The notes beneath the pieces were generated by a model. It was not told the origin of the DNA. It worked only from the letters and a program-made list of their open reading frames with translations, and searched no databases. Shown piece by piece: positions 6,662 to 7,651 of a DNA stretch of 7,651 bases. This DNA is from a virus (Duplodnaviria > Heunggongvirae > Uroviricota > Caudoviricetes): the IMG/VR virus record IMGVR_UViG_2681813314_000029; one strand, given 5' to 3'. Numbering within the stretch: the stretch's first letter is position 1; each line of letters begins with the position of its first letter. A program made the position numbers and the translations under genes.

Positions 6662-7255
6662 CTATTTGTCCCGGTTGGCTAAGGGATGACACAATTTATT
6701 CTTTGTCGCTGATGAGGGAAATTTTTTATAGAGCGTGGACAGACCAATATCAAAAATCAGTGCCACGCGTTGACGTGACTCCCCTGCAGCCAGCAAACGC
6801 CCGGCCTGCTCCCACTCACTCGCGGTGAGTTTCGGTCGTCTGCCACCAATACGACCTTTGGCTCTGGCCGCTTCCAGCCCGGCCCGAGTCCGCTCGACAA
6901 TGAGTTCTCGTTCCATTTCAGCCAGGGCACCCATCACATGAAAGAAAAAACGCCCCATCGGCGTGCTGGTATCAATAGCATCCGTCAGGCTGCGAAAATT
7001 AATGCCGCGTTCGCGCAGCTCCTCAACCAGAATGACCAGATGCCGCATACTACGCCCCAGCCGGTCCAGCTTCCAGACTACCAGTGTATCCCCCTCCGAT
7101 AATGTCCTGAGCAGTTTTTTCAGTCCCGGCCTGTCGGACTTCGTGCCGCTGATTTTGTCCTCAAAAATCCGCTCACATCCCGCGCACTCCAGCGCGTTAC
7201 GCTGCAATTCCGTGTTCTGGTCATTTGTTGACACGCGTACATAGCCAATAAGCAT
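6662..7255 (-). CDS. Serine DNA invertase, Hin/Gin/Cin/Pin family (about 197 aa)
   Basis: The translation has the N-terminal catalytic motif MLIGYVRVSTNDQNT (catalytic Ser in VRVST), then GDTLVVWKLDRLGRS, MGRFFFHVMGALAEMERELIVERT, and a C-terminal helix-turn-helix (GRRPKL...ALIFDIGLSTLYKK), all as I recall them from Gin/Pin/Hin. The track ORF begins at ATG 7300; I prefer ATG 7255 (the MLIGY start), which has a GGGGGA RBS about 5 nt upstream. ATG 7261 is an alternative. Confidence 0.9.
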   Translation of the reverse strand: MLIGYVRVSTNDQNTELQRNALECAGCERIFEDKISGTKSDRPGLKKLLRTLSEGDTLVVWKLDRLGRSMRHLVILVEELRERGINFRSLTDAIDTSTPMGRFFFHVMGALAEMERELIVERTRAGLEAARAKGRIGGRRPKLTASEWEQAGRLLAAGESRQRVALIFDIGLSTLYKKFPSSATKNKLCHPLANRDK

Positions 7256-7310
7256 GAGCATCCCCCTGAATAAAAACCGGAGATGATGCCAGTTAGCCAT
7301 AATCTCTGCA

Positions 7311-7336
7311 TTTTCTTAAACGTTGGTTTGGGAGAA
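7311..7336. other. 26-bp invertase crossover site (hix/gix/cix-like): TTTTCTTAAACG-TT-GGTTTGGGAGAA
   Basis: Two imperfect 12-bp inverted half-sites flank a 2-bp core. On the bottom strand it reads TTCTCCCAAACC-AA-CGTTTAAGAAAA, close to the half-site consensus TTATCAAAAACC I recall for hix/gix. It lies about 55 bp upstream of the invertase start and inside the open frame of the fibre cassette, as at the constant/variable junction in Mu G and P1 C segments. Confidence 0.7.
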
Positions 7337-7651
7337 GGTTCTCCAGCTATTGGCGTTCCGTTCTTCTGGCCGTCCGCTGCAATGCCAAATACTGTAATCG
7401 ACAGCTGGTCCAGTATGGTGTTTTTGAAGTTCAACGGCGCGAAATTCTCTGCCACTGATTACCCTGTGCTGGCGAAAGTGTTTCCTTCGCTGGTATTACC
7501 TGAGGCCCGCGGTGATTTCATTCGTATCTGGGATGACGGGCGAGGTGCAGATGGTGGTCGCGAATTATTAAGCTGGCAGGCAGCTACAAACTTTTCTCAG
7601 TTTGCCGGGAATATAGGCGGAGGTGCGGGACACGCAATTAACTTTCATGAT
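7311..7651 (+). CDS. Tail-fibre C-terminal variable (receptor-binding) cassette, partial; 3' end beyond the window; appears unfused (silent orientation)
   Basis: The plus-strand frame is open from 7274 to the window end and encodes ...GEGSPAIGVPFFWPSAAMPNTVIDSWSSMVFLKFNGAKFSATDYPVLAKVFPSLVLPEARGDFIRIWDDGRGADGGRELLSWQAATNFSQFAGNIGGGAGHAINFHD. This carries the tail-fibre collar-type motif (P-x-P-W-P...YP-x-LA...P-x-RG...D-x-GRG-x-D-x-GR...H) seen in Mu S, P1 S, P2 H and e14 fibres. It begins at the crossover site and diverges from the invertase gene. No fibre N-terminal region lies upstream on this strand. Confidence 0.75.

Follow-up and report, generated by a model that had tools for sequence, protein, structure and literature searches.

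A probable invertible tail-fibre segment beside a Pin/Gin-type invertase gene in a P2-like Escherichia coli prophage

The class of host-range switches that includes the Mu G, P1 C, and e14 P segments was described in the 1980s. The invertases of this family act as dimers on inverted 26-bp sites together with a Fis-bound enhancer, and inversion proceeds through 2-bp staggered cuts, subunit rotation, and religation (PMC3798978). The e14 P segment is 1797 bp long with the organization stfP-tfaP-tfaE-stfE-pinE, and its inversion is reported to yield a fusion protein that prevents T2 from adsorbing (PMC12529663). The Mu G segment is about 3 kb and is organized S-U-U'-S'-gin, with the silent S' diverging from gin at the right-hand gix. 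Sequencing and PCR have shown both orientations to coexist reproducibly in e14 as well as in two P2-like EPEC E2348/69 prophages (PMC4272514), and the Z/fun hotspot of P2-like phages often encodes a DNA invertase with the adjacent genes inverted (bioRxiv 10.1101/2024.10.15.618418).

The locus described here lies at the right end of a 7651-base window (the whole stretch of DNA that was analysed), and is very probably one end, the one beside the invertase, of an invertible tail-fibre segment of the Pin/Gin type, carried by a P2-like prophage and inverting by the mechanism proposed below. Its tail-fibre switch is of an already known, textbook class, and inversion has previously been demonstrated in P2-like E. 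coli prophages. By sequence, e14 is the closest known system in both invertase and site. In relatives of the window the gene order and strand logic are the same as in the e14 P segment, the segments have similar lengths (about 1.8 kb at this locus), and the inner half-site GGTTTGGGAGAA and a junction peptide ...LGLGEG... are common to both; however, e14 is a lambdoid remnant whereas the host element here is a P2-like myovirus prophage, and the constant part at this locus is P2 gpH with its Phage_tail_fib N-terminal domain, unlike that of e14. The layout is also that of the Mu G segment, although the Mu segment is longer, the gix sequence (TTCCTGTAAACCGAGGTTTTGGATAA) differs from the site here, and comparison of the cassette with Mu S and S' gave nothing below an E of 1e-3, so that the resemblance to Mu is architectural only. 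The Mu G/e14 P-type architecture proposed in the initial annotation is thus recovered in the gene order of the relatives. The EPEC E2348/69 prophages, likened here by description, are of the same phage family and have the same fibre-FI locus and mechanism.

The window is the tail module of a P2-like (Peduovirus) E. coli prophage, and in the list of open reading frames the module is entirely on the minus strand, as was claimed earlier for the structural genes (Table 1). The P2-like (Peduoviridae) order ogr-D-U-T-E/E'-FII-FI is complete, and the window also has the pF promoter and, for E/E', the slippery site. A prophage in E. coli E308 is 99.3% identical across the whole window, many further complete E. 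coli genomes have prophages that are 97–98.5% identical, and 1569 genomes carry a place covering at least 80% of the window. Only 315 bases of the window follow the crossover site, and an exact 60-mer across the site matched nothing in the genome or viral contig collections. The rightward context was therefore read from E. coli prophages that are 97–99% identical, including those of EC26 (L001), EC12 (L005), AMSCJX04 (L006), and E308 (L007); the window's own right-hand part presumably resembles theirs. Prototype P2 (NC_001895) has a collinear tail module, and its FI gene and pF promoter region are almost identical to those in the window. In P2, however, the interval from G to FI is occupied by fun(Z), which lies on the opposite strand, and the H-G pair of fibre genes is fixed. 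P2 has no invertase, and the initial annotation was correct in describing it as lacking one in this slot.

Table 1. Features of the 7651-base window, with coordinates, strand, and basis of assignment.
Feature	Coordinates	Strand	Basis
ogr	1–219	minus	ORF; annotation of relatives
D	301–1464	minus	ORF
U	1464–1943	minus	ORF
Tape measure T	1958–4405	minus	ORF
E/E'	about 4398–4825	minus	ORF
Tail tube FII	4881–5399	minus	ORF
Sheath FI	5412–6602	minus	ORF
Serine DNA invertase, Pin/Gin/Cin/Hin group	6662..7255	minus	197 aa from MLIGYVRVST; Pfam, PHROG, Gin/PinE identity
Candidate recombinational enhancer region	7171..7234	minus	homologous to the enhancer part of gin and hin
Invertase leader and inferred promoter region	7256..7310	minus	between crossover site and start codon
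26-bp crossover site	7311..7336	plus	consensus scan; e14 comparison
Variable C-terminal tail-fibre cassette, receptor-binding part	7337..7651	plus	open frame; PHROGs; cut by window end

The invertase is read from a minus-strand ORF at 6662–7300, which matches Pfam Resolvase (1.1e-52, residues 18–150 of the long ORF) and HTH_7 (1.2e-12, residues 153–196), and is assigned to PHROG 125, 'DNA invertase' (E 2.8e-101). Its best solved relatives are the Mu Gin structures PDB 3UJ3 and 4M6F (E about 1e-94), and the protein is 86.7% identical to K-12 PinE and 80.1% identical to Mu Gin (181 residues); NCBIfam gave only sub-threshold matches for the invertase and none for the cassette. Pfam, PHROG 125, and the identity to Gin and PinE agree with one another and with the Hin/Gin/Pin-family serine invertase that had been claimed on this strand. 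The protein has the family architecture of an N-terminal catalytic domain with an active-site serine (Ser9 in YVRVST, aligned with Gin) and a C-terminal helix-turn-helix. His106 and Met114, the residues changed in Gin mutants that no longer need Fis, have the wild-type identity here in the alignment with Gin, and the 3UJ3 and 4M6F chains have V at 114. Phage pro483 also has an annotated DNA invertase, which is 97% identical in DNA to that of the window.

The invertase is annotated in the relatives as a gene of 594 nt coding for 197 aa and beginning MLIGYVRVST, which corresponds to 7255 in the window, and comparison of the sequences makes this most likely the start. An ATG at 7300 would add 15 codons before MLIGYVRVST, but is specific to the window, where 7298 is A and the relatives have G. 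The C-terminus is 13 residues longer than that of PinE because the end of the gene runs into the pF promoter region. Near-identity to the P2 pF late-promoter region (window 6603–6695, minus) begins in the last eight or so codons (...PLANRDK and stop), and the 3' end carries a partly conserved P2 activator-binding site, TTGTG...TTAGCCAACCGG; the Ogr-dependent promoter of FI therefore overlaps the end of the invertase gene.

Upstream of the invertase gene, the outer edge of the crossover site is 80–81 nt from the start codon in e14 pinE and Mu gin, and the spacing in the window is the same. The invertase promoter probably lies in this leader (7256..7310), and a simple scan of 6500–7651 found no match to the sigma-70 consensus for the invertase. 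Terminator-like matches in the same interval were disregarded, as all are inside the invertase coding sequence. By analogy with the other members of the family, we infer a Fis-dependent enhancer in the 5' part of the gene at 7171..7234. Two 15-mers of the form G-N13-C are centred at +29 and +78 of the invertase gene, at positions that are kept in gin and pinE, although this conservation is confounded by coding constraint. In the Hin enhancer the Fis-site spacing is 48; the 15-mers here are 49 nt apart as counted, and a crude scan for Fis-like pairs at exactly 48 nt returned none. In the account given in PMC3798978, which cites Kahmann et al. (1985), the Gin enhancer sits inside the invertase gene.

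The crossover site reads TTTTCTTAAACGTTGGTTTGGGAGAA, and is made up of an outer half-site TTTTCTTAAACG, a central dinucleotide TT (7323–7324), and an inner half-site GGTTTGGGAGAA. It has two mismatches to the invertase-site consensus TTCTCNNAAACCNNGGTTTNNGAGAA and is the sole match in the window at up to three mismatches, with none found in 200 shuffles; the same scan recovers both Mu gix sites at the annotated boundaries of the G segment. The site shares 25 of its 26 bases with the e14 pix site beside pinE, to which the site in three relatives (L002, L005, and L006) is identical at all 26 positions. The 26-bp site that had been called here from the sequence alone is thus the unique consensus match. 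Megablast alignments with other P2-like phages break off at 7337, at the inner edge of the site.

The right-hand part of the segment is well represented in the relatives. EC26 is 97.8% identical to the window over 6600–7651, and its RefSeq annotation continues from the invertase (minus) with a tail protein 'missing N-terminus' (plus), an assembly gene (plus), a second assembly gene (minus), H (minus), and then I, J, W, and V; a DH5alpha-labelled genome and E308 have the same gene order. An inverted second site, TTCTCGCATACC-TT-GGTTTGGGAGAA, is found in EC26 1794 nt to the right, inside H, and the two sites in E308 are 1732 nt apart. According to the initial annotation, the sequence beyond the window's right end should contain, within a few kb, a second site in inverted orientation, together with a pair of tail-fibre-assembly genes and the constant fibre N-terminus on the minus strand; all three are present in relatives. 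The inverted partner (TTCTCGCATACCTTGGTTTGGGAGAA, core TT) is found 1.73–1.9 kb away in all six relatives examined, which have exactly two sites each, whereas one of the EPEC loci has three inverted repeats and four variants. The two assembly genes between the sites are convergent and both are Caudo_TAP members (L001 10181–10774, plus, and 10746–11186, minus). The H fibre gene has an N-terminal Phage_tail_fib domain, and its frame passes through the second site; H and the cassette are both in codon phase 1 at the site and both read ...LGLGE... across it, so an exchange at the central TT keeps the frame.

Indirect evidence of inversion comes from comparing complete E. coli genomes with one another. 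When inversion is simulated, the constant part of H and the window's cassette form a single frame without stops, and the predicted H-cassette junction (682 nt) occurs as one unbroken alignment in 53 complete E. coli genomes, at up to 98.2% identity; the expectation that inversion would place this cassette in frame behind the constant fibre part therefore has natural counterparts. The genomes with this fusion have a different cassette beside the invertase. The reciprocal junction, with the window's invertase side joined to the cassette expressed in EC26, is present in 118 genomes, and the arrangement of the window, with the invertase beside the same cassette, in 123. A comparison of AMSCJX04 (L006) with EC26 (L001) illustrates the rearrangement: the flanks are collinear at 96–98%, while two stretches that make up almost the whole segment, one of 1411 bp (98%) and one of 226 bp (94%), are inverted, with breakpoints within the 26-bp sites. 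The outer half-sites are constant with the flanks in every genome, TTTTC(T/A)TAAACG on the invertase side and TTCTCGCATACC on the H side, whereas the inner half-site moves with the segment in both orientations, a pattern that fits exchange at the site centre. No strain sequenced in both orientations was found among the matches listed, with the E. coli W lineage in one orientation and two DH5alpha-labelled records in one orientation, and in principle the orientations may differ from genome to genome because of rare events in the past and not because switching continues.

In the mechanism that we propose, invertase dimers would bind the two inverted 26-bp sites about 1.75–1.8 kb apart, one at 7311–7336 and the other inside H to the right of the window. 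With host Fis on the candidate enhancer at 7171..7234, the enzyme would cut at the central TT of both sites, half of the complex would rotate through 180 degrees, and the ends would be religated; the dependence on Fis and the enhancer and the chemistry of strand exchange are assigned to this locus from the family. The flipped segment would comprise a pair of alternative C-terminal fibre parts, and each would be accompanied by a tail-fibre-assembly chaperone gene of its own. Only the cassette behind the constant N-terminal part of H would be included in the translated fibre, so that inversion would change receptor specificity.

An alternative is that the switch is frozen, because the second site has been lost, the enhancer no longer works, or the invertase is no longer expressed, and that the cassette is a permanent remnant. 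The visible window excludes the right-hand part, the consensus scan found no invertase promoter, and decay is seen in some relatives: in E308, the closest, frameshifts are annotated in the cassette and in the neighbouring assembly gene, and in EC12 (L005 5150–7265) the fibre region has internal stops in both assembly genes and IS26 truncates the prophage beyond the segment. We nonetheless consider a frozen switch unlikely, as the invertase ORF is intact with its catalytic serine and is 80–87% identical to proven invertases, the crossover site is one base off the working e14 site, all 111 visible codons of the cassette frame are open, and both orientations are common among close relatives.

On the plus strand, the frame that crosses the site has no stop between 7274 and the end of the window, and from the site the cassette reads ...NVGLGEGSPAIGVPFFWPS...; the full cassette in EC26 is 153 aa. 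Tail-fibre PHROGs are matched in their C-terminal halves only (phrog_3100 at 217–307 of 382, E 6e-41), in line with the earlier view that the visible cassette has no N-terminal baseplate-attachment part. The description of the cassette as starting exactly at the site is correct for the tail-fibre homology, but not for the open frame, which extends upstream of the site and includes ATG codons there. Of the fibre C-termini with which the initial annotation would have the cassette aligned, e14 StfE is similar (57% identity over 88 aa) whereas Mu S and S' are not. A Pfam Collar domain match was below the gathering score (17 versus 24 bits) and is not relied on. A consensus scan found no plus-strand promoter-like site in 6500–7651 and the cassette is without the constant part, and it is therefore probably silent; that it is unfused, and presumably silent in the current orientation, follows from its position beside the invertase in the window.

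The features upstream of the site also raise the question of whether the cassette is translated alone, as a free C-terminal fragment that might block receptors (compare e14 StfE2). A TAA at 7271–7273 precedes the frame, and an in-frame ATGATG at 7283–7288 (ATGs at 7283 and 7286), 28 nt upstream of the site, directly follows GGAG; the ATGATG is kept in e14, the stand-alone 'gp53-like' CDSs of RefSeq in L005 and L006 begin at the equivalent ATG, and a defence role is reported for a protein formed by e14 P-segment inversion (PMC12529663). The same published work is a point against such a product here, in that the active protein is the fused post-inversion product rather than an unfused cassette (PMC12529663). 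In addition, the GGAG is poorly spaced, abutting the first ATG and lying only 3 nt before the second, the plus strand has no promoter-like site in the interval scanned, and the N-terminal baseplate-attachment domain is missing, and we regard independent translation as very unlikely. That such a fragment, translated from the ATG at 7283 or 7286, would serve the lysogen in superinfection exclusion or defence in the manner of e14 StfE2 is an analogy that we consider extremely doubtful, and nothing in the window itself argues for it; if true, the switch would toggle a host-protective function in addition to virion host range.

Cassettes are also shared more widely than the segment. At the protein level, the cassette (7337–7600) shares 97.7% identity across 88 residues with the side tail fibre of a lambdoid siphovirus, mEp043, which makes it a receptor-binding module common to unrelated phage families, and HK97 Stf is 56% identical to the cassette. 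The E308 alignment ends at about 7570, inside the cassette (L007 1704 onward), where frameshifts are annotated, whereas the 97% relatives reach the window end, and the cassette tip is therefore mosaic even among near-identical prophages. This near-identity to mEp043, the variation of the distal cassette between relatives, and the ending of homology to many P2-like phages exactly at the site would suit exchange of cassettes mainly by ordinary recombination from phage to phage, whether homologous or illegitimate, in which the site region would be no more than a mosaic boundary, but this is extremely improbable as the main explanation, since it accounts for cassette diversity and not for clean inversions such as the same 1.4 kb flipped between AMSCJX04 and EC26 with collinear flanks and breakpoints inside the 26-bp sites, nor for half-sites that segregate as exchange at the central TT predicts; the two processes are not mutually exclusive.

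Near-identical copies of the feature occur in well over 100 complete E. coli genomes. The locus matters mainly for correct annotation. The tail pseudogenes that RefSeq labels 'incomplete, missing N-terminus' beside such invertases are alternative cassettes rather than products of decay, and either orientation may be captured in assemblies. The receptor-binding part now used by the window's prophage sits outside the window.

Two further features are found at the other end of the tail module and within it. From a TTG start, the ogr ORF (1–282, minus) codes for 93 aa, while the ogrK gene of the relatives codes for 72 aa, corresponding to 1–219 of the window; the prophage adjoins yegQ/trhP in the relatives, and at this place K-12 keeps only an ogrK remnant. 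A slippery heptamer of the P2 type, TTTTTTG, is located at 4577–4571 on the minus strand near the end of gpE, and its sequence and position are consistent with a programmed -1 frameshift that would produce E+E'. The part downstream of the heptamer is annotated in the relatives as a separate 'GpE family' CDS.
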